Source: Candidatus Thorarchaeota archaeon
GTDB lineage: Archaea > Asgardarchaeota > Thorarchaeia > Thorarchaeales > Thorarchaeaceae
Direction: 5' to 3'
Length of the DNA: 20,705 bases
NCBI GenBank assembly: GCA_048884785.1
Contig: JBHLQM010000060.1
Coordinates: forward strand, 2,062-22,766
Under the pieces are notes generated by a model, which did not search any database, was not told where the DNA came from, and saw nothing but the letters and a program-made list of their open reading frames with translations. Of the stretch, positions 1-11,670 are shown one piece after another. The first letter of the stretch is position 1. Each line of letters starts with the position of its first letter. Made by a program: the position numbers and the translations under genes.

Positions 1-678
1 AAAGTTAGAAACGAGAGTCTGGAGGCGACGGTTGAATCTCTAAAAGCTGCTCCTGTGGCTGATACTGCGCTTGTTACAGAGCTTAGGCAAAATGCCAAGG
101 TACTAGAGGCAGAGAGGAATATTTTGGAAAACAAAATTACCGATACCGAAACAAATCTTCATTTGGTTGAGTCGCAGCTAGCAAACTTGAGGGATGAATT
201 CTCAAAGAAAGAATTGGAATGCGAGGACTATCGTGAGAGAAGTACTAAGCTTCAAGCTGAAGCTGAAACAGTAAAGGATCGACTTGAGGAAGTTGATGAA
301 CTAAGAGCCCGCGTCCGTTCTCTTGAATCTGGTGATTCAATGCGTGAACTCGAGAGAACTCGAAGTGAAATTGAAAGACTTAGTGCCAGCAATGAACGAT
401 TGAAGAAGGATCATGACGCAATGAAAGCCAAAGTTGAGTATACAGAGGCTAGGCTAAAAGGATATCTTGGTCTAATGGATAGTACAGAAAAAACCAAGGC
501 ATTCTTGATTCTCGAAGATAACAAGGAGATATCTCTCCGTGAGATTGCTCGCTCGTTGGGGGTATCCCCTGCTACGGTTTCAAAATGGGTAGACGATTTT
601 GTTCAGCTTGGTATTGCACGTTTGGTTGATGGGACAACTTTGGTATTGGCCATAGGAAAGGATGAAGCATCAGAATAA
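1..678 (+). CDS. Coiled-coil protein with C-terminal winged helix-turn-helix (5'-truncated)
   Basis: The frame is open from base 1 (KVRNESLEATVESL...), so the real start is probably upstream of the window. A long E/K/R/L-rich heptad region is followed by an HTH signature, ISLREIARSLGVSPATVSKWVDDFVQLGIA. Confidence 0.8.
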   Translation, partial: KVRNESLEATVESLKAAPVADTALVTELRQNAKVLEAERNILENKITDTETNLHLVESQLANLRDEFSKKELECEDYRERSTKLQAEAETVKDRLEEVDELRARVRSLESGDSMRELERTRSEIERLSASNERLKKDHDAMKAKVEYTEARLKGYLGLMDSTEKTKAFLILEDNKEISLREIARSLGVSPATVSKWVDDFVQLGIARLVDGTTLVLAIGKDEASE

Positions 679-1207: not shown

Positions 1208-2275
1208 ATGCGACATGTTTCTGTTACAATGAAAGAGGCTCTACTATATTCCAAAATAAAAGAGGCAGTTCGATGCGACCTCTGTGCACGTAGATGTGTA
1301 ATAAACGAGGGAGAAACAGGGTTTTGTCGTGTTCGCATTGTCAAGAATGGCATTCTCTACAGCAAAGTTTACGGTTTAATTGACGGTATGGCTCCTGACC
1401 CCGTGGAAAAGAAGCCTCTCTTCCATTTTGCCCCCGGATCAAATACTTTCTCAATCAGTACCTCTTCATGCAATTTCAGGTGTGATTTCTGCCTCAACTA
1501 TCACTCTTCTCAAAGAGAATCTCCAGTGGGCGAAGAGCTTTCTCCTACGGACCTAGTTGGACTCGCCAAGCAATATGATTGTCAGGGGATGACATATACA
1601 TATACTGAACCAACAATCTTCATGGAGTTGGCGTATGATACAGCGAAACTTGTGCACCATGAAGACATGTATAACACATTTGTCACGAATGGCTATATGA
1701 CATCTGAGGCTGTTGATTTGATTTCACCTTATCTTGATGCGGCTTCTGTCAACTTTAAGGGGAGCGCTAACAAGGAGTTTTACAAAAGGCTCATGGATGT
1801 TCCTAAGACAGATCCGATATTCTCCAGTATGGAGCAGATGAAATCAAGGGGGGTGTTCATAGAAATAACAAATCTGATTATTCCTCAGATAGGGGATTTC
1901 CTCGATGACACTCGTATTCTTGCTGAGTGGGTAGTCGAAAATCTTGGCCCTCGAACACCGTTCCATTTCACATCTTTTGCCCCCACGTATAAGATGACAC
2001 ATATTCCACGAACACCTGCTTCCACGCTTGAGCGGCATATCTCAGTTGCGAAAGAGTCCGGTCTGGAGTTCGTGTATTCAGGAAATGTCCCTGGCCATGA
2101 CTATGAAAATACATATTGTCCGAAATGTGGTTTTCAGGCTGTGGAGCGTTACTCTGTATATCTAAAGAGAAATAGTCTCAGAGAAGACGGACGCTGTCCA
2201 AAATGTGGCACAGATTTGGGGATGTCAGGAATCAAGTGGATGAAGGTAGGCCGTGGAAGATCACGTTTCTATTGA
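1208..2275 (+). CDS. amrS: AmmeMemoRadiSam system radical SAM enzyme (PflX/AmrS-like)
   Basis: N-terminal CDLCARRC...GFCRVR, DPVEKKPLFHF, radical SAM CNFRCDFC, YTYTEP, VTNGY, YSGNVPG and C-terminal CPKC x2. The true start may be the ATG at 1229 (MKEALL). Confidence 0.9.
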   Translation: MRHVSVTMKEALLYSKIKEAVRCDLCARRCVINEGETGFCRVRIVKNGILYSKVYGLIDGMAPDPVEKKPLFHFAPGSNTFSISTSSCNFRCDFCLNYHSSQRESPVGEELSPTDLVGLAKQYDCQGMTYTYTEPTIFMELAYDTAKLVHHEDMYNTFVTNGYMTSEAVDLISPYLDAASVNFKGSANKEFYKRLMDVPKTDPIFSSMEQMKSRGVFIEITNLIIPQIGDFLDDTRILAEWVVENLGPRTPFHFTSFAPTYKMTHIPRTPASTLERHISVAKESGLEFVYSGNVPGHDYENTYCPKCGFQAVERYSVYLKRNSLREDGRCPKCGTDLGMSGIKWMKVGRGRSRFY

Positions 2276-2285
2276 GGGAACTGGT

Positions 2286-3170
2286 ATGCAAGTTCTTGGT
2301 GTTTCTTGGAAAACCCGTGGTACCAAATACAAATCAGGTCTTAATGTACGGAATTCGCAGGATGAAATCAAATTCCTACCCATCACCCGAGGACAGCGCA
2401 TCGCCTGGACTGTTCAGGGGCCCAAAAGATGCATTGGAAGGCTTTCAGATGACCAGATATTGAATCCATGTCCATCAAAGCAGGTTGTTCTCAAGGGTGC
2501 AAAATGCCCGGAGTGTTCAGCACTTGATTTTTTCGAACCATGTATTCGATGTAATGGCTATAGTTGTAGAGCGAGCAATAATCGAAGAATCGAATGTGAG
2601 AATTCGGATTATGTTGTTTATCTTGCAATCTTCAATGATAGTAGTATCAAAGTGGGAGTATCTACCAAGAAAAGAGCAATGATTCGATGGTTGGAACAAG
2701 GAGCCGATTACGCAGGAGTATTGCTGGAAGTTGAAGGCGGCAAAATGGCAAGGCAAATTGAGCATGACATAGGCAGGCATCCTGCCATTCAGACAGCTGT
2801 ATCAAGTGCCAGCAAGAAGAAGTCATTATTATCGAAACTCAGCTTTGATGAGGCAAATTCCATTGTGATGAGTTTTCTGGATTCCTACTCAATTCATTCC
2901 ACATTTGAAGCTCCCACGCTCATAGATCTTTCAATTCATTATTCACTTGATGACCTTCTCACAGAACCCATCCCATGGCTTCGAAGGAATCAGAAAATAC
3001 AAAATTTGAAACTTGTTGGTAATGTTCTTGGTATGAAAGGATCCTACGTAATCACGAAGATTGGTAATGCATATCGCATAGCATCATTGAAAAGACTCAT
3101 TGGTTATTCAATAAATGAGGGGATAGCTGAGCCATTTGAATCTCAATCTGGGCTCTTAGATTTCATATGA
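2286..3170 (+). CDS. DUF2797-like protein (Cys-rich N-terminus)
   Basis: RCIG...CP...KCPEC...CIRC...C cysteine cluster, then YVVYLA...IKVGVS...RWLEQGA and a G-x-KG-x tail typical of DUF2797. ATG at 2286, after GAGGG, is preferred to GTG at 2253. Confidence 0.75.
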   Translation: MQVLGVSWKTRGTKYKSGLNVRNSQDEIKFLPITRGQRIAWTVQGPKRCIGRLSDDQILNPCPSKQVVLKGAKCPECSALDFFEPCIRCNGYSCRASNNRRIECENSDYVVYLAIFNDSSIKVGVSTKKRAMIRWLEQGADYAGVLLEVEGGKMARQIEHDIGRHPAIQTAVSSASKKKSLLSKLSFDEANSIVMSFLDSYSIHSTFEAPTLIDLSIHYSLDDLLTEPIPWLRRNQKIQNLKLVGNVLGMKGSYVITKIGNAYRIASLKRLIGYSINEGIAEPFESQSGLLDFI

Positions 3171-3209
3171 GTAAAATCAAAATACCCGTAATATAGCTGG
3201 CAGAACAGT

Positions 3210-4055
3210 ATGAATGAGCAAGAAGAAATTGCATTGGTTCGTTACATCTCACTGGTACGCAGAGAAGGTGGAGAACCCATACTAGGAATCCCCTATCGCG
3301 AGATGAGCGTCGACCCGGACCTCATTGCAAGCTTCGTCTTGGCTATCATCATATTTGAAAATCGTCAATTGAAAACCTTCACAAAAGAGGGTTACGTCGT
3401 TGTAATTGAGGAAGGGAAACATGTCGTAGGTCTCCTAATAGTTGACAAAGTAGAAGATGACGAGCCTTATAGGAATGAACTACGAAAGATTATTGCCCTA
3501 TTTGAAGAGGAATTTGATACTCAACTTAATTCGTGGAAAGGAGACATTCGTCCCTTTAGGAAATTTGCCCTTGATATTCTTGGCATCTTTCCATACAGGG
3601 ACTTGGATTGGGATTTGGTACCACACATGGTACAACCTTCAGAAGCTGCACCTGATCATCATACTCCAATTCCATGGAGTGTGGGTGAAACGGATGAAAG
3701 GATACAGAATCTTGTAGGGTTCATCAATGGAAAGCGAACAATCAATGAAATAATGGAGGCCTCGGAATATACAGAGTTGGAAACAAGAGCCATATTCTCG
3801 ATGCTTGATAGATACAAGTGGATTCGACTGGACAGAAAACTGGGTCCCACATCGCTACTTCGGAAGATTGCCAATCCGCCCAGGTATTTAATTGGTGCCT
3901 ACGGCGACCAGTTGCTTGAGATTGTCGAGAAATTCGATGGAACAAAAACGATTGCTGAGATATGTCAATCCCTTTCTTACTCAGTTGAGGTAGTAGTAAC
4001 AATTGCCCGTAACTTGATTGATGCAGGAGTGCTGAAATACTATGATTCCAATTAA
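3210..4055 (+). CDS. Longin-like domain + tandem wHTH protein (NPRL2/NPRL3-like architecture), paralog 1
   Basis: N-terminal longin-type pattern (ISLVRREGGEPIL...DPDLIASFVLAI...VVIEEGKHVVGLLIVD...LRKIIALFEEEF...F). Two repeats of a 'DG-RT--EI' wHTH follow (FINGKRTINEI; KFDGTKTIAEI...LIDAGVL). Confidence 0.65.
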   Translation: MNEQEEIALVRYISLVRREGGEPILGIPYREMSVDPDLIASFVLAIIIFENRQLKTFTKEGYVVVIEEGKHVVGLLIVDKVEDDEPYRNELRKIIALFEEEFDTQLNSWKGDIRPFRKFALDILGIFPYRDLDWDLVPHMVQPSEAAPDHHTPIPWSVGETDERIQNLVGFINGKRTINEIMEASEYTELETRAIFSMLDRYKWIRLDRKLGPTSLLRKIANPPRYLIGAYGDQLLEIVEKFDGTKTIAEICQSLSYSVEVVVTIARNLIDAGVLKYYDSN

Positions 4056-4141
4056 TAGTAAGGCTTATAGTAGTGATTACACCTGCATCTATCTCCTATC
4101 TGAGGGCCATACATGTGTTTACAGAGGAGAGATATTCGAAT

Positions 4142-4963
4142 ATGGCTGTTGATGTTACCAAGGTTCGGTATATCTCTCTAATTCGTCTTGAAGGTGGAGA
4201 GTCGCTTGTTAATATTCCTTATGAGGAGCTCACAGTCGACCCTGATCTTATTGCAGGATTTGTTACGGCCGTAATTATCTTTGCAAAAACACCTATTCGT
4301 ACAATACGAAAAGCCGCCTATGACATTCTCATTGAGGTTGGCAAAACAACTTTGGTTCTTCTTGTTGTGGATCCGGTTCCAGATGAAGCGCCATACAGAG
4401 CGAAATTGAAGAGAATTCTCGATTTGATTGAAGAGGAGCATGGAAGAAGACTAGAGCAATTCGAGGGTGATGTTAGGAGATTTAGAGAATTCGCCATCTC
4501 CATTCTCAAGGAGTTTCCATACGATATACCTGATCCAGATATGGTTCCGGTTAGGAAACCAAAAGGAGTTCCGATTCCGTACAGAGTAGGCAAAGTTGAC
4601 AGTCTGTTGGAACGAGTTGAGAGCTTCATTAATGGCAAGCGGTCAATGTCCGAGATTCTAGATCTAATTGGCATTTCTGAGGATGAAGTGACTGCCTTGG
4701 TATCAGTTCTTTCAAAGTATGGTTGGATTGAATTCAAAAAGAGGCTCACAGAGGATGACATTCTTAAGAGAACGGATTGCCCGAAGGCATCAATAGATAG
4801 GTTGAAGGGTTCATATGGCATGCCTATCGATGATATCCTCGAGAAATTCAATAAACCCTCTCAGGTGAAAGAGGTTCTTGATTCACTGCCGTATGATAGG
4901 AATGCATCTTGGTTTATTGTCAACAAACTCGTTGAATTGAAATGCTTAGATCAGGTAACCTAG
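4142..4963 (+). CDS. Longin-like domain + tandem wHTH protein (NPRL2/NPRL3-like architecture), paralog 2
   Basis: Aligns ungapped with the preceding gene over ~120 aa at roughly half identity (hand count). Contains FINGKRSMSEI. ATG at 4142, downstream of AGAGGAG, matches the paralog's N-terminus better than GTG at 4073. Confidence 0.65.
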   Translation: MAVDVTKVRYISLIRLEGGESLVNIPYEELTVDPDLIAGFVTAVIIFAKTPIRTIRKAAYDILIEVGKTTLVLLVVDPVPDEAPYRAKLKRILDLIEEEHGRRLEQFEGDVRRFREFAISILKEFPYDIPDPDMVPVRKPKGVPIPYRVGKVDSLLERVESFINGKRSMSEILDLIGISEDEVTALVSVLSKYGWIEFKKRLTEDDILKRTDCPKASIDRLKGSYGMPIDDILEKFNKPSQVKEVLDSLPYDRNASWFIVNKLVELKCLDQVT

Positions 4964-5785
4964 GTCGAGTACATCATCTTTTCCTGGAATGCCCACCACA
5001 TCACTTCTACACTGATGGCAGTGCACAAACTGCTTCAAATAGACACCAGCATCTTTTCTTGCCTGTAGCAATTGCGGAAATGTTGGAGGTATCATTGAAG
5101 ACATGCAGTCTAGAGGAACAAGAGGTAGTATGTTCTGAAGATCAACTCCTAGATTCGCAAGTGTTGCTGCGAGTTCAACGACCTCATCAGAATTGAGCTT
5201 AGGAATGAGAATTGTGTTGACCTTTACATGAATTCCTGCACCTTTGGCACTCACTATCCCTCTAACTTGTCTATCAATAATATCCTTGGCCATCTCGAAA
5301 CCAGAGCTAATTTTCCCGTCTATAAATGCCCACTCGTAAATCTTTGATGCAGTTGTAGGTCTGATTGAACTCATTGACACTGATATGGTAGAAACTTCGA
5401 GCTTTTCAAGGCGCTTGACATTTTTTTCCAATAGAATTCCATTGGTGCTTAAACATAGCCTCATCTCAGGAAATGAATCCCTAACAAGCTCAATAGTTTC
5501 AAATGTTTCTTCATTGAACAGAGGGTCACCAGGTCCTGCAAATCCGACAATACGCAAATTTGGTTTTTTCTCAAGATAGTGCGACAGTACAATCAAAGAT
5601 TCCTCTGGGCCTAAGATATCTTGACAAGAACCCGGCATTGGAATATGGCACGATGAATTCTGGCTTTGGCAATATGAGCACTTTACATTGCAGGCTTTGG
5701 CAACTGGGAGGTGTATTCTCTCCCATAATTCGGTTCGTTTGTTGCTCCAACATGGATGATGGACTAAGTGATATGCTAATGTCAT
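4946..5785 (-). CDS. NifB-like radical SAM protein (stand-alone, no NifX domain)
   Basis: HPCW, RIHLPVA, CNVKCSYC, AGPGDPL, LCLSTNG, VKVNTILIP and C-terminal HCHQCRSDVVG. Confidence 0.8.
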   Translation of the reverse strand: MTLAYHLVHHPCWSNKRTELWERIHLPVAKACNVKCSYCQSQNSSCHIPMPGSCQDILGPEESLIVLSHYLEKKPNLRIVGFAGPGDPLFNEETFETIELVRDSFPEMRLCLSTNGILLEKNVKRLEKLEVSTISVSMSSIRPTTASKIYEWAFIDGKISSGFEMAKDIIDRQVRGIVSAKGAGIHVKVNTILIPKLNSDEVVELAATLANLGVDLQNILPLVPLDCMSSMIPPTFPQLLQARKDAGVYLKQFVHCHQCRSDVVGIPGKDDVLDLGYLI

Positions 5786-5797
5786 TATTCCAAGCTC

Positions 5798-6235
5798 TTA
5801 GATTATGTCTTCAAGTAATCGCGTGGCTTCTCTTGCACAAATCTTTGCATCATTGAAAATGAGGCCTAGCTTGGCATTTTCAGGCGCAGTAACTGTCAGG
5901 AGATATCCATGCGATATGGAAATGGTTAATGTCGTTCCTCGTGTACCCTGAATTATGATAGATTTTAGCTCCCCTTGTCGCAACTCTTTTACAGTTTGCT
6001 CGCCAACAGCTTGAATACTAGCAACCATAGCCGCAACTGAAACTTCCTCAACACCTGAATTGAAATGACTGACAAAAGGAAGCCCTTCTACCGAAAATAT
6101 GGCAGCGCCTAGAATTGGAGACTTGTGACTAAGATTTCTGAGTAGAGTCTTTAGTGGTTCCAATCCTTCTTCAGTTGTCAGGCGGGCCAAAGCAAAATCA
6201 CTCTCTAGTCTAACATTCTTCTTTTTACTAATCAT
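5798..6235 (-). CDS. Roadblock/LC7 (MglB-like) domain protein
   Basis: ILGAAIFSVEGLPFVS...VAAMVASI...EL..GEL..IIIQG..G...LLTV.....KLGLI is the roadblock consensus. ATG at 6235 or TTG at 6241. Confidence 0.88.
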   Translation of the reverse strand: MISKKKNVRLESDFALARLTTEEGLEPLKTLLRNLSHKSPILGAAIFSVEGLPFVSHFNSGVEEVSVAAMVASIQAVGEQTVKELRQGELKSIIIQGTRGTTLTISISHGYLLTVTAPENAKLGLIFNDAKICAREATRLLEDII

Positions 6236-6258
6236 TAGCAATAATCTGAAGGTTCTTT

Positions 6259-6275
6259 CACGCGTATAAAGCTTA
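6259..6275 (-). promoter_or_regulatory. Putative archaeal BRE/TATA promoter for the roadblock-nifB-like unit
   Basis: The minus strand reads AAGCTTTATACG, about 30 nt upstream of the ATG at 6235. The context resembles the hsp20 promoter (AAAGCTTATATA). Confidence 0.45.
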
Positions 6276-6283
6276 GTAACAGG

Positions 6284-7273
6284 CTACTCAATTAGACGAA
6301 CTGAGGTTACGGTATCACTTCGTAGACGTCTAGTTGGTGTTTTCATTACTCGGAGAATATTATCCGCATGCGTATCGAGCCCGGATTCTCTAAGCATTTC
6401 AACAAACTCAAATCCTGTGGAGATTGCAAGTCCACGGAGAGGCTTGCCCTCTTTGCAGGATTCCAGCAAATCCTTCGTGGAGACCAATTTGCATCGAATA
6501 TCCTCTTCTCGATGTTTCTGGAGATGGGAAACTCCCTTGCGCGAAATTCCTCTATTCTCCCTCTGTTCTTCAGTGTAGCTTTTTCGCTTTGATATATTCT
6601 CAAGCCTATTGATGCCCTTACTAATTATGTCATCAGATCTTAGATTTGAGCCATATTGCTCTCGAACACTTTTGGTTGTGGATGTCACCAACCATGCGGT
6701 TCCATACACTTTCTGATATCTCATTCCCTTGAGGATTTCAGATTCACTGAGGAGCGTGATAGATCTATAGCCCTTATACTCAACTGAAATTGTCCAATCT
6801 GGGTTGGCATGATGAACCAAAAGGTCAGGAGTCAATCCCTCACCAGTTGTCGGGACCGTAGTTGATACATCAGGAAAGAGTGTCATAATAAGAGCAAGAA
6901 ATGCCTCGTGGAAGATATTGTGACGTAGATTCCGAGCCTCTTGAGGGTGTCTCATTCCTGCTTCTCGATATAGTACCGGCATTTCCACTTTTTGGCCTGT
7001 TCTTTTCTTGACTTCATTTCTTGTTGTTAAACGTCCTCTTCTATGATTCTCCTGTACCAGCCTCACGGCAGCCTCGAAGCCTATAAGGCCAAAAATGACT
7101 TTACCTAGTGATTTATTCTCAGTTCCTCTTCGCTTCGCCTCATCCTCTGCCCACTTTATCACTTCTTGAGCTTCGCTTCCTAGGAGTTGTATTATCGAAC
7201 CCATTTTGTCATGAAGCCCATACCTATTGATGTGATTCCTTAGTGATGTGCTATATTTGACTCGTTTTCCCAA
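6284..7273 (-). CDS. Hypothetical protein with PD-(D/E)xK nuclease-like motif
   Basis: FHEAFL...GLTPDLLV...ISVEYKG...MRY..AWLVT has the spacing of the restriction-endonuclease-like fold. The protein is basic, and its TTG start is preceded by GAGGAG. Confidence 0.6.
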   Translation of the reverse strand: MGKRVKYSTSLRNHINRYGLHDKMGSIIQLLGSEAQEVIKWAEDEAKRRGTENKSLGKVIFGLIGFEAAVRLVQENHRRGRLTTRNEVKKRTGQKVEMPVLYREAGMRHPQEARNLRHNIFHEAFLALIMTLFPDVSTTVPTTGEGLTPDLLVHHANPDWTISVEYKGYRSITLLSESEILKGMRYQKVYGTAWLVTSTTKSVREQYGSNLRSDDIISKGINRLENISKRKSYTEEQRENRGISRKGVSHLQKHREEDIRCKLVSTKDLLESCKEGKPLRGLAISTGFEFVEMLRESGLDTHADNILRVMKTPTRRLRSDTVTSVRLIE

Positions 7274-7315
7274 AGTATCTCCTCATGTGAACTGTCAACT
7301 ATTGTCTTTCATGAA

Positions 7316-7987
7316 CTAGAGAATATCCTTGATGAGTTTCACTTCTTGGGTTTCTTCGTTGAATGATACAAGATCTGCGTTTCGCAAGTCGTGAATTGCT
7401 TTGATTACAGCGGTTGGCATTATTCCAGTGCTAGATTCTATATTCTTGCGAGATATTGCAGTCTTTGTATTGTGAAGTGTATACAAGACCCGAGCATGGG
7501 GCTTTCCGCCAAAGATTTTCTCAATTAGTAGGATGTAGATAGCTAGAAGATCACTAACGTCTACTTTCTCCTGAAGCTTCTCCTTTTCAGCCGCGGTTTC
7601 ACGGTATAACTCGGATACTTTTTCGAGCTGTGCATTTATTTGATTCATTTCAGTTCGCAGCTCATCTCTCTCTCTTCGAATTGCATCAATTTCCTGATCT
7701 TTATTCGCTGCGGACTTTGCTATATCCTCTTTCAGAGTATCGGCTTCTCTGGTCCTTTCGGCTAAGCTCTCCTGAAGGCTCTCTAGCTTGGCTGATTTCT
7801 CCTGCAATTCGGCTTCGGTTTCTTTAAGCTTTTCTTCAGCAGCCCACGATTTCTCCTCTGCTTCTCTTCTTGAAACTCGAAGTTCTTCTGCTTCTGCCTC
7901 AAGTTTCTCAAGTTCATCAAAAGCTTTGAGGGCTTTTGTCTTTAGCTCTTCAAATAACGACTCTAGTCTCTGCTTATCAGATGACAT
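7316..7987 (-). CDS. Coiled-coil protein with C-terminal winged helix
   Basis: About 140 aa of E/K-rich heptads, then RVLYTLH...ISRKNIESSTGIMPTAVIKAIHDLRNADLVSFNEETQEVKL. AGGAGG RBS. Confidence 0.8.
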   Translation of the reverse strand: MSSDKQRLESLFEELKTKALKAFDELEKLEAEAEELRVSRREAEEKSWAAEEKLKETEAELQEKSAKLESLQESLAERTREADTLKEDIAKSAANKDQEIDAIRRERDELRTEMNQINAQLEKVSELYRETAAEKEKLQEKVDVSDLLAIYILLIEKIFGGKPHARVLYTLHNTKTAISRKNIESSTGIMPTAVIKAIHDLRNADLVSFNEETQEVKLIKDIL

Positions 7988-8021
7988 GTTGACTCCTCCT
8001 GATTGAGAACAGTTTTCTGCC

Positions 8022-9167
8022 TTAAATCAGTTTCACATTGTACTCATATGCCTTGCTAATAATATATGATTTGTATTTCTCTTTCAAATCCTTAAGTGGA
8101 AGCCCAAATGACTTGAATGACTCGAGCTCACCTTTTCTCTTCTTACGGAGCATTATTTCATTTTCTTTACTTAGATACTTATCCCCCTCTATAGCTGGAA
8201 TACTTCGGTTTTGGTGTGCACAAGTAATATCTGATTTGCTCAAGGCTTCCAATGAATGCTCAATTTCCTGCAGCATTCCCCCGCGGCTCCAGAAATCGGA
8301 AGTTGTCATTCCAATCAAATGGACCTCCGGAGTCGCAAGACCCTGTATATTAGAGAGTTCTATTGAGTTAGATCTTATTGTCGAGAAGATTCTCAATGAC
8401 CATGGAGATAGGTCAACCAGGATGAAAATGGGTATCTCATTATCAGCCAGTCTTCTTATCCATGCTCTCATATTCCGACCCGGCTGTCCGAAAAGTGAGC
8501 CGACCCCTATCCTGAGTTCATCGGGTAGATTGAGTTCGATTAGGTTTCGTGCCATTGCTTCTTTTTCAACAAATATTGCGGCATCAATGTTGATGTCGTG
8601 AATCCTTACATCAAAAGGCCTACTTGAGATAAACCAGCCGTATTCACCTGCTTGATTGCAGTTCAATTGCTTTCCAGATAGATCTGTGAGGGTCACGTCA
8701 CCAAAGAATGTACCTTTCGGTGAGCTCACAACTCCAAATTCCTCGCGAGGCACAGATTGTCCTCTAATTCTCAGAATTCTTTCAACCAATGTAATGATGC
8801 GGTTTGTTTCATTTTGACTGCTTATCTTGAGTGTATCTTGGACTCGCTTGACTTTATTCATGTAGTAAAAATCTCGGAGTGACATTGACATACCTTGGTC
8901 CAAATGTTCTCGAAAACGTGATAATCCGTAGACCAACCCTGCGATTGTCCGGGCGCTTTCCACCTTTCTTCCATCTATAAATGATGGAGTATCGTCAATT
9001 GATGTATAGCCTGTTTCAGGCACGTACTGCACATTCTTCTTTGAGGAGCCAAAGTACCCTATTTCAGGAAATTCTCCTTCCTCTATTGTTTGGTGGAGGG
9101 TATATAGGATATGATCTATGATTTCCATCACCTCCGTGGAAGAAATGTTAAGGTTCTTAGACATCAT
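8022..9167 (-). CDS. top6A: DNA topoisomerase VI subunit A (Spo11 family), divergent
   Basis: SLRDFYY (catalytic Tyr), Q.ETN, REEFGV, Toprim FVEKEA, GQP, LATP and KGELES. Lies immediately downstream of top6B. Confidence 0.88.
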   Translation of the reverse strand: MMSKNLNISSTEVMEIIDHILYTLHQTIEEGEFPEIGYFGSSKKNVQYVPETGYTSIDDTPSFIDGRKVESARTIAGLVYGLSRFREHLDQGMSMSLRDFYYMNKVKRVQDTLKISSQNETNRIITLVERILRIRGQSVPREEFGVVSSPKGTFFGDVTLTDLSGKQLNCNQAGEYGWFISSRPFDVRIHDINIDAAIFVEKEAMARNLIELNLPDELRIGVGSLFGQPGRNMRAWIRRLADNEIPIFILVDLSPWSLRIFSTIRSNSIELSNIQGLATPEVHLIGMTTSDFWSRGGMLQEIEHSLEALSKSDITCAHQNRSIPAIEGDKYLSKENEIMLRKKRKGELESFKSFGLPLKDLKEKYKSYIISKAYEYNVKLI

Positions 9168-10752: not shown

Positions 10753-11670
10753 TTACGTAGAAAACATGCTGTAAATCATTGGCAATGTAAAATAGCCGAA
10801 TATGATCATGATAATAAGTGCTGCAGTAAGAACCGCCCATAGTTCTCTACTCCATTTCACTACAGTTCCGCCATCAAATGGCTGAAATGGTATCATATTG
10901 AATGCTCCAAGAATGGCATTGAGTATAATACCCGTCTGAAATATGAAATAGACGGGTGGTGCAATACCAAGGCCACTTATTGTCAATAGTATCGAAAGCA
11001 GTGCAAATGCCACTGCAATAATGAGATTTGATAGTGGACCTGCTACATTTGTCTTTCCGTCTTTTTCAAGGCTATCCGCACCACTCGTAAAGACGACCCC
11101 TGTACCAAATATGGGAATGGAGAATAGAATGGCAATTGCCGATAGATAGTAACCAGATGTAGTCATACGAAACTCAGCCCACATTCCATAGTGTTGAGCT
11201 GTGAATTTGTGTGCCATTTCATGAACAAAATATGCTAGAAGCAAACTGGACACAGTGGCTAATGGAACCCACCAATATCCAATGGCTACAAGGAAAATCA
11301 GAGCTTGGAATGCCGATATGATACCTGGAACCCCTATGTAGTTCGACTGAAGAGAAATACTGACGAGAATTACAAGAATGGCTGATATCGTGAGGTCTCT
11401 CTTCTCTTGGTTGGAAAATCGGCTCTTTCGGCGTCTTGCTCGCTGCCTTCGGGGTACTTCTTGCCTTTGTTCAACCAGAACATCTTCATCGGGTTCATAT
11501 TCATCTACAGTGAGAGAGTCCTGAACCTTTCTCTTGGCTCTTTCCTTGGCGAGATGTATTCCAGGGCAACCATGTCCTTCTGGCAATCGATGGTCTGTGC
11601 AGTATACTCCGTTGCAGTACGGACATGTGAATCCAAGGTCATCCTGACCGCAGAGAGAACACCGAACCAT
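10753..11670 (-). CDS. AN1-type zinc finger fused to M50 (site-2 protease) membrane metalloprotease
   Basis: N-terminal CSLC...FTCPYCNGVYCTDHRLPEGHGC (AN1). HEMAH, AGPLSN and NMIPFQPFDGG (M50), with multiple hydrophobic TM segments. Confidence 0.88.
   Translation of the reverse strand: MVRCSLCGQDDLGFTCPYCNGVYCTDHRLPEGHGCPGIHLAKERAKRKVQDSLTVDEYEPDEDVLVEQRQEVPRRQRARRRKSRFSNQEKRDLTISAILVILVSISLQSNYIGVPGIISAFQALIFLVAIGYWWVPLATVSSLLLAYFVHEMAHKFTAQHYGMWAEFRMTTSGYYLSAIAILFSIPIFGTGVVFTSGADSLEKDGKTNVAGPLSNLIIAVAFALLSILLTISGLGIAPPVYFIFQTGIILNAILGAFNMIPFQPFDGGTVVKWSRELWAVLTAALIIMIIFGYFTLPMIYSMFST

Follow-up and report, generated by a model that had tools for sequence, protein, structure and literature searches.

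The gene pair and its domain architecture

The window analyzed here is a stretch of 20,705 nucleotides (nt) from a Candidatus Thorarchaeota archaeon (NCBI GenBank assembly GCA_048884785.1, contig JBHLQM010000060.1, positions 2,062-22,766 of the forward strand), whose source genome comprises 3.6 Mb and is 91.3% complete. It carries two adjacent genes in the same orientation, designated A and B, each encoding a protein with an N-terminal longin domain, a linker strand and two winged helices; coordinates are collected in Table 1. An earlier note on this DNA, made from the sequence alone, had described the two as paralogs about half identical over an ungapped N-terminus of ~120 amino acids (aa) and had likened them to the eukaryotic proteins NPRL2 and NPRL3. 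The core of that observation is confirmed, and its interpretation is supported in part. NPRL2 and NPRL3 (Npr2 and Npr3 in yeast) form the core of the GATOR1/SEACIT complex, a GTPase-activating protein (GAP) for RagA/Gtr1.

BLASTP aligns A and B with 109 identities in 277 positions (39%, E 2e-65) and 10 gap positions. In the ungapped N-terminal stretch 59 of 120 residues are identical (49%), whereas 2000 shuffles yielded 8.9 on average and at most 19, so that the identity is far above chance. The open reading frame (ORF) of B extends upstream to a GTG at 4073, and the ATG at 4142 gives the form found in the database (P0124, 273 aa); because this form and the majority of orthologs begin at the ATG, it is most likely the start.

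The D-x-VP linker motif that had been read in each protein is found in both (D135-L-V-P138 in A, D133-M-V-P136 in B), and its proline is invariant in the combined alignment of 45 sequences; separate alignments of 24 A-type and 23 B-type sequences were used for comparisons between the paralogs. Of the two winged-helix repeats of the form DG-RT--EI that had likewise been claimed for each protein, A has both (NGKRTINEI at residues 173-181 and DGTKTIAEI at 243-251), whereas B in this window has one clear copy (NGKRSMSEI) and a degenerate second one (NKPSQVKEV), at which the majority consensus of B orthologs is FDG.

Predicted fold and structural matches

The AlphaFold2 model of A, computed from a 45-row alignment, has a mean predicted local distance difference test score (pLDDT) of 85.9 and a predicted template modeling score of 0.78. 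The longin domain in this model consists of β1 (residues 10-17), β2 (23-28), α1 (36-50), β3-β5 (56-79), α2 (85-107) and α3 (114-126), followed by the linker strand (136-140) and winged helices at residues 159-219 and 225-277. A Foldseek search of the PDB with the whole model returns GATOR1/SEACIT chains at all of ranks 1-10 (E 9.1e-8 to 1.6e-5, 329-366 alignment columns), with adaptor sigma, zeta-COP, Mon1-Ccz1, roadblock (LAMTOR) and MglB chains at lower ranks. The whole-chain TM-scores to the GATOR1/SEACIT chains are low (0.30-0.38, with root mean square deviations (RMSD) of 11-14 Å), and the domains would therefore be packed differently from those of the eukaryotic chains. The VIA-align comparison of the whole model is dominated by the longin domain: the best match is the longin of Sec22b (Z 15.8, RMSD 2.4 Å, 120 residues), followed by Ykt6, VAMP7, Fuzzy and the adaptor (AP sigma/mu) longins, and all of the 50 matches listed are longin/roadblock-type domains. 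As modeled, the longin head of A by itself is generic.

The tail of A (residues 130-281), modeled alone from a 66-row alignment, reaches a pLDDT of 92.9. Its Foldseek ranks 1-8 and 10-11 are NPRL2/NPRL3/Npr2/Npr3-type chains (E 8.3e-5 to 8.6e-3, query-normalized TM-score (TMq) 0.52-0.65), rank 9 being FAM91A1. In the VIA comparison rows 1-8 are again NPRL2/3-type, with Z 10.0-11.2 and 137-143 of 152 residues aligned, and the alignment covers residues 167-329 in the human and 237-488 in the yeast chain; matches to a single winged helix reach Z ≤8.3 over ~70 residues. According to these models, the likeness of A and B to NPRL2/3 lies in the tail together with the order of the domains. The architecture proposed in the earlier note thus agrees with the structural comparison that it had suggested, the best Foldseek matches of both the whole model and the tail being GATOR1/SEACIT chains rather than proteins unrelated to longin/NPR2.

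Conserved residues

The longin domain is the most conserved part of A. In the linker, P138, I154, P155 and V158 (A numbering) are invariant across A and B orthologs, and arginines R11, R17, R88 and R114 are invariant in both paralogs, R17 immediately preceding a glycine loop in the longin domain. This loop reads G21-E22-P23 in 24 of 24 A sequences and G19-E20-S21 in 23 of 23 B sequences, so that its proline is kept in A only and is serine in B. Further invariant stretches specific to each paralog occupy longin loops around strands 1-3 (FENRQLKTF in A, FAKTPIRTIRK in B). These fixed differences therefore suggest that A and B are two non-equivalent subunits. The mean net charge of the winged helices is +0.4 and -3.7 for the first and second of A and -2.5 and -2.2 for those of B, and such neutral-to-acidic values argue against DNA binding.

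Distribution and age of the duplication

Among 70 related loci from species-representative genomes, A and B stand in tandem in 61, separated by 18-172 nt. A alone is present in five loci, each of which ends ≤405 nt after A; B lies at a contig start in one locus, one further locus (L085) has a B-type gene only, and two hold other paralogs. Matches at E ≤1e-10 occur in 98 of 201 sampled genomes of the phylum, including 42 of the 43 other genomes sampled from the family of the window. In this sample the strong tandem pair is confined to that family, and weaker full-length homologs are present in other Asgard families.

A tree built with a quick maximum-likelihood method, for which SH-aLRT is the only support measure, places A and B in separate clades with 99% support each. 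B groups with further Thorarchaeial paralogs (89%). A sister family within the order has a single copy, which forms an unresolved trichotomy with A and the group of B plus further paralogs. Judged from these sequences, the A/B duplication is old within one Thorarchaeial family but local to it. It is not the ancestor of the eukaryotic NPRL2/NPRL3 split and, because it is confined to one family of Thorarchaeia, is independent of it. A recent, lineage-specific duplication with no GTPase interaction had been named beforehand as an outcome that would speak against the comparison with NPRL2/NPRL3; the duplication is not recent, as the 99% clades and the family-wide occurrence indicate, but it is lineage-specific.

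Relatives and their link to small GTPases

The source genome contains eight matches to A. One of them lies on contig C40 in a 653-aa protein composed of an N-terminal domain, an Arf-like GTPase, an acidic linker and a longin plus two-winged-helix module. The GTPase domain matches Pfam Arf (E 1.2e-17) as well as Roc and Ras, with a weak match to Gtr1_RagA (8.5e-5), and the C-terminal module matches the A-type profile at E 9.5e-34. Fusions of this type occur about once per genome in the family of the window and are found in the sister family as well (L096). Directly upstream of the fusion lies a gene for a 566-aa protein whose C-terminal part matches the A/B profile (E 2.7e-7), and this tandem (L008, L013) recurs in six of six other genomes of the family that were sampled. 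The 566-aa protein has no Pfam domain, and its BLASTP comparison with the 653-aa fusion is not significant (E 0.46). Four further paralogs in the source genome (L004-L007) have no NTPase or roadblock gene within ~3.3 kb.

A second association with a GTPase is found in another Asgard family (genome G007, locus L090), where the gene for a full-length A/B homolog (E 1.1e-36) follows that of an Arf-like GTPase on one strand, two genes downstream. The apparent six-gene operon (4018-8233 of that locus, minus strand) encodes a 351-aa winged-helix protein, a 276-aa Arf-like GTPase with an N-terminal extension, a 180-aa acidic coiled-coil protein, the 303-aa A/B homolog, and proteins of 157 and 104 aa. 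By eye, the N-terminus of the 351-aa protein looks longin-like and has a VDPDL motif; hhalign of the profile against this protein gives a probability of 9% with only a winged-helix stretch aligned, which does not establish homology. DUF742 (PF05331), which sits in bacterial roadblock-GTPase operons, has no match to A or B in the Pfam scan, and the distant homolog in L090 scores 26.6 bits with this model at a cut-off of 27.

More distant relatives number 315 at E ≤0.001; 150 were listed, and 40 of these were scanned with Pfam. Three of the 40 carry Arf/Ras domains, four KaiC-type ATPase domains and 20 no Pfam domain, and the others include Ig-rich giant ectodomains, prenyltransferase-like repeats, an MFS transporter, V4R and extra HTH domains. 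Matches in the ESM Atlas are archaeal clusters without names (HTH_47 in 11-50% of members, TrmB in 52% of one cluster) and one adaptor-sigma-like cluster. Judged by this spread, the longin head is an adaptor that has been reused widely, and it is only in the closest full-length sisters that GTPases are implicated.

Neighboring genes

The order of genes around A and B is given in Table 1. The earlier note had placed a roadblock gene ~0.8 kb from the pair on the opposite strand, and this holds: the gene is convergent with B and lies 835 nt downstream of it. The apparent gap is, however, filled by a radical-SAM gene (rSAM2), the 3' end of which overlaps that of B by 18 nt, the two being convergent. 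Both rSAM2 and the roadblock gene are present in 54 of 54 Thorarchaeial loci with at least 1500 nt of DNA after B. At the single-copy locus of the sister family, the A/B-type gene sits between the DUF2797 gene and a directly adjacent convergent roadblock gene, and rSAM2 is absent; rSAM2 is probably a neighbor and not part of the A/B system. A roadblock gene is thus found near an A/B-type gene in both families of the order, and none accompanies the distant homologs examined (L090-L092, L094, L095). The genome holds 14 roadblock matches, of which 11 exceed the family cut-off. A functional link of the roadblock gene to A and B may exist, but nothing apart from the common descent of the locus speaks for it.

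Table 1. Genes and protein domains at the A/B locus. The domain limits of B were transferred from A by alignment.
Feature	Position (nt)	Strand	Basis and remarks
rSAM1	1208-2275		AmmeMemoRadiSam-system enzyme, 284.5 bits (cut-off 220)
DUF2797 gene	2253-3170	+	Directly upstream of A; Pfam E 3.5e-17
Gene A, 281 aa	3210-4055	+	ORF, translation, AlphaFold2 model, Foldseek; longin, linker strand and two winged helices; A-type of NPRL2-like family
A longin domain, residues 8-128	3231-3593	+	β-β-α-β-β-β-α-α in model; VIA match to Sec22b longin
A linker, residues 129-158	3594-3683	+	D-L-V-P strand and IPWSVG motif; model strand at 136-140
A winged helix 1, residues 159-220	3684-3869	+	Motif NGKRTINEI; models; part of GATOR1 chain match
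A winged helix 2, residues 221-278	3870-4043	+	Motif DGTKTIAEI; models; covered by same GATOR1 match as winged helix 1
Gene B, 273 aa	4142-4963	+	Paralog of A with same architecture; BLASTP, ortholog alignment
B longin domain	4157-4519	+	Alignment to A
B linker	4520-4588	+	Alignment to A
B winged helix 1	4589-4774	+	Alignment to A
B winged helix 2	4775-4951	+	Alignment to A
rSAM2, NifB-like radical-SAM gene	4946-5785	-	Pfam Radical_SAM E 1.4e-14; NCBIfam nifB 209.9 bits, below cut-off 343.65
Roadblock/LC7 gene, 147 aa	5798-6241	-	Pfam Robl_LC7 E 2.8e-11, 43.4 bits (cut-off 23)

The block from the AmmeMemoRadiSam-type radical-SAM gene (rSAM1) to a coiled-coil gene is present in nearly every Thorarchaeial locus with enough DNA; beyond the coiled-coil gene most loci continue into Top6A/B, and a minority have the M50 peptidase gene in its place. 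This conserved synteny reflects close kinship more than function, and the neighborhood by itself therefore carries little weight.

Several observations concern the neighboring genes themselves. The DUF2797 gene overlaps the end of the rSAM1 gene by 23 nt, and the C-terminus of its product (...QSGLLDFI) resembles a PCNA-interacting peptide (PIP) box. The conserved block is flanked on both sides by genes (1-678, plus strand; 7316-7987, minus strand) whose products each have a long coiled coil and, at the C-terminus, a winged HTH; the second of these proteins has weak SMC-like coiled-coil matches. Just after the roadblock gene, a gene for a 329-aa protein (6284-7273, minus strand) has no Pfam or NCBIfam match and is 53-78% identical across Thorarchaeial loci. 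Farther along, the gene at 10753-11670 (minus strand) encodes an M50 peptidase with an N-terminal AN1-type zinc finger, an unusual combination, and adjoins topoisomerase VI genes. A 266-nt contig from a metatranscriptome library, which may hold DNA, maps to 5734-5999 and thus bridges the roadblock gene, at its end, and the radical-SAM gene, at its start; this hints, if weakly, at joint transcription of the two. The same library has no contigs on A or B, from which, given its possible DNA content, neither expression nor silence follows. A promoter and terminator scan of 3000-6400 gave counts at shuffle level with consensus sequences that are bacterial, the host being archaeal.

Proposed function and alternatives

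We propose that A and B constitute a Thorarchaeal NPRL2-like longin platform, probably an A:B dimer, for a small Arf/Rag-like GTPase whose gene lies elsewhere in the genome, a reading to which we give about an even chance. As in other longin and roadblock proteins, the longin domains would probably mediate dimerization, most likely of A with B, and the dimer would present a platform to the GTPase; the platform could then set the nucleotide state or the location of the GTPase, be it as a GAP, as a guanine nucleotide exchange factor (GEF) or as a scaffold. The winged helices, being acidic, would make contacts with proteins and not with DNA. Longin and roadblock dimers are described as platforms for small GTPases in a published account (PMC10933270). 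The conserved tandem arrangement of the genes and the invariant loops specific to each paralog are indirect signs in favor of A:B pairing. A complex predicted from the alignments of A (24 rows) and B (23 rows) scored 0.02 and 0.01 against a mark of 0.32 in a run without folded controls, and is uninformative either way. The idea of a GTPase partner gains support because a GTPase-fused sister and a GTPase operon exist, and a link of A and B to small GTPases is in this sense indirectly supported.

A more specific version of this proposal can be formulated, which we consider unlikely as a whole. Here A and B would form a longin heterodimer that is both obligate and asymmetric and corresponds, in free-standing form, to the GTPase-fused sister pair of the same genome, acting in trans as GAP or GEF for one of the Arf/Rag-like GTPases of the organism, with A (G-E-P loop, R17) catalytic and B structural, and possibly docked on the roadblock protein, much as Rag regulators dock on Ragulator. 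If it were true, the pair would be a living minimal model of longin GAPs of the GATOR1/FLCN/C9orf72 class as they may have been before eukaryotes.

A number of results weigh against the proposed NPRL2-like platform. The Pfam scan of A gives no family at E ≤0.01 and NCBIfam likewise nothing, that of B gives a sub-threshold winged-helix match only (wHTH-PRTase_assc, E 0.0086), and a search of PDB sequences with the 45-sequence profile yields no NPRL chain at E ≤10, A and B singly giving chance-level matches only. Neither the NPR2 (PF06218) nor the NPR3 (PF03666) model has a match in the 91.3%-complete genome at E ≤0.1 (the control genomes for the NPR2 search were all prokaryotes, and none matched), and the model for the third subunit DEPDC5/Iml1, IML1 (PF12257), has no match there either; these searches do not place A and B in the NPR2/NPR3 sequence families. 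No GATOR1 chain is among the 50 VIA matches listed for the whole model of A. In the ortholog alignments (24 and 23 sequences), the strict GP dipeptide at the start of longin strand 2 is absent, and the β4-β5 hairpin (E-E-G-x-x in A, E-V-G-x-x in B) has an invariant glycine and no conserved basic residue. This hairpin is presumably the position of the catalytic arginine of NPRL2 (Arg78); because it lacks a conserved basic residue, a GATOR1-type catalytic mechanism is not indicated for A and B.

The genomic context weighs on the same side. None of the 21 ORFs of the window that were scanned with Pfam carries a GTPase family, in keeping with the earlier note, and none is found in the conserved Thorarchaeial neighborhood. 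The Gtr1_RagA model has 12 matches in the genome at E ≤0.01, of which five exceed the cut-off and none is linked to A and B; the match on C40, the sole one compared with other models, fits Arf better (E 1.2e-17 vs 8.5e-5). One locus in a Thorarchaeota metagenome-assembled genome (MAG), L085, has only a B-type gene (55% identical to B, 38% to A) between rSAM1 and rSAM2, without A and without the upstream DUF2797 gene there, and the single copy in the one genome of the sister family is 30% identical to A and 31% to B. A heterodimer is therefore not obligatory for this type of protein. The fusions of relatives to KaiC-type ATPases, Ig-rich giants and transporters indicate, moreover, that the partner need not be a GTPase.

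This last point leads to an alternative in which A and B regulate a P-loop ATPase (of MinD/ParA or KaiC type) or another switch protein, the longin being a general adaptor of NTPase switches in Asgard archaea. The KaiC-type domains adjoin the longin in four of the 40 scanned relatives (P0303, P0318, P0328, P0344), but these fusions share the longin part only (profile positions ~15-120), whereas among sisters with the full longin plus two-winged-helix module, those closest to A and B are either fused to an Arf-like GTPase or encoded near one; no ATPase gene adjoins A or B in the ORF scan of the window. This alternative appears unlikely. The longin fold might also be taken at face value, with A and B as adaptors devoid of an NTPase partner that bind membranes or cargo, as SNARE and adaptor longins do. 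In structure the longin domain is closest to Sec22b, Ykt6, VAMP7 and the AP sigma/mu longins (Z 12-15.8), and in relatives it is located at the cytoplasmic end of Ig-rich giant proteins and of a transporter. These matches, however, reflect the common fold only, the Pfam scan shows no SNARE motif or adaptor trunk in A or B, and the existence of GTPase fusions and of a GTPase operon favors a partner of the switch type, so that we hold such a role to be quite improbable.

The tail invites two other readings. If the winged helices bound DNA and the longin sensed a ligand or partner, A and B would be transcription regulators, as many archaeal winged-helix proteins are; weak winged-helix matches (the wHTH-PRTase_assc match of B and MarR-type chains at E 0.22), the TrmB match of the single-copy homolog in the sister family (E 4.5e-6) and the occurrence of HTH_47 in related clusters are in line with this. 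The neutral-to-acidic charge speaks against it, as do the strongest conservation being in the longin domain and the match of the tail, over both winged helices and the linker, to the protein-binding NPRL2/3 tail (Z 10-11, vs ≤8.3 for single DNA-binding winged helices). A regulatory role of this kind is rather improbable. The position of the pair between radical-SAM genes could, finally, suggest peptide-recognition partners of these two enzymes that resemble RiPP recognition elements (RREs), and winged helix 1 with its preceding strand does align to the RRE-type domains of MccB, TruD and PbtF (Z 6.2-7.8, 63-71 residues). The NPRL2/3 match, however, is stronger and twice as long; rSAM1 belongs to the AmmeMemoRadiSam system, whereas the NifB-like rSAM2 is encoded on the opposite strand and is missing at the locus of the sister family. 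We regard this reading as highly improbable. The proposed platform for a small GTPase remains the reading that we prefer.

Comparison with known systems

An 'NPRL2-like' family has been reported in most Thorarchaeota MAGs (Liu et al. 2020, bioRxiv 10.1101/2020.10.19.343400, Fig. 5c), and the description of that family fits both the architecture of A and B and their spread (42/43 genomes). A and B likely belong to it. The family is thus already in print, and the window adds no new kind of thing. The passages of the preprint on which this comparison is based make no mention of the tandem paralog pair, the roadblock neighbor or the GTPase-fused sisters. A literature search for NPRL2/NPRL3 together with archaea or Asgard yielded, in the passages retrieved, no mention of the tandem pair, and among these only Liu et al. 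and PMC12290439 link the two subjects.

The NPRL2-NPRL3 pair itself resembles A and B in that its two members are paralogs and both have a longin domain at the N-terminus, then a linker and tandem winged helices, and provides the best structural matches of A. A looser likeness is that A keeps the strand-2 proline and B does not, as the GP motif is present in NPRL2 and absent from NPRL3. A and B differ, however, in being ~100-300 residues shorter, in having G-E-P instead of GP and no conserved basic residue in the β4-β5 hairpin, in lacking sequence-family membership and a DEPDC5/Iml1 match in the genome, and in domain packing (RMSD 11-14 Å). The GP motif at the start of strand 2, beside the arginine finger, is reported for NPRL2, FLCN, SMCR8 and C9orf72 and not for NPRL3 or FNIP2 (PMC12290439, section 2.4). 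The same source proposes that the longin pairs FLCN-FNIP and C9orf72-SMCR8 and the Asgard 'FLCN/SMCR8-type' longins act on Arf/Rag-type GTPases. These proteins share with A and B a conserved glycine-rich loop before strand 2, but they have DENN domains rather than winged helices, and beside their strict GP motif lies an arginine finger. Both the DENN domain and the GP dipeptide are absent from A and B.

The roadblock/longin platforms MglB-MglA, Ragulator-Rag, Mon1-Ccz1 and TRAPP share the core fold, MglB, LAMTOR and Mon1-Ccz1 being among the lower-ranked Foldseek matches, and, as described in PMC10933270, provide dimeric platforms for GTPases, which serve as the general model for how A and B may work. 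None of them has a tandem winged-helix tail, in contrast to A and B, and most act as GEFs or scaffolds. A comparison within the genome is with the 653-aa GTPase fusion and its 566-aa neighbor, a conserved tandem in which the module is homologous to A and B (E 9.5e-34 and 2.7e-7). In the fusion the N-terminal domain and the Arf-like GTPase are covalently attached, unlike in the free-standing A and B.

How the longin GAP complexes that control nutrient signaling in eukaryotes (GATOR1, folliculin, C9orf72-SMCR8) originated is an open question. A compact protein from an archaeon in which a longin head is joined to an NPRL2-type winged-helix tail offers a minimal system for asking what role this architecture played before there were lysosomes and target of rapamycin (TOR). 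To the family already in print, the present analysis adds that the pair is strictly conserved in one Thorarchaeial family, that there are fixed residue differences between its paralogs in the loops which, in the eukaryotic complexes, face the GTPase, and that the GTPase-fused sisters in the same genome name a candidate class of partner.

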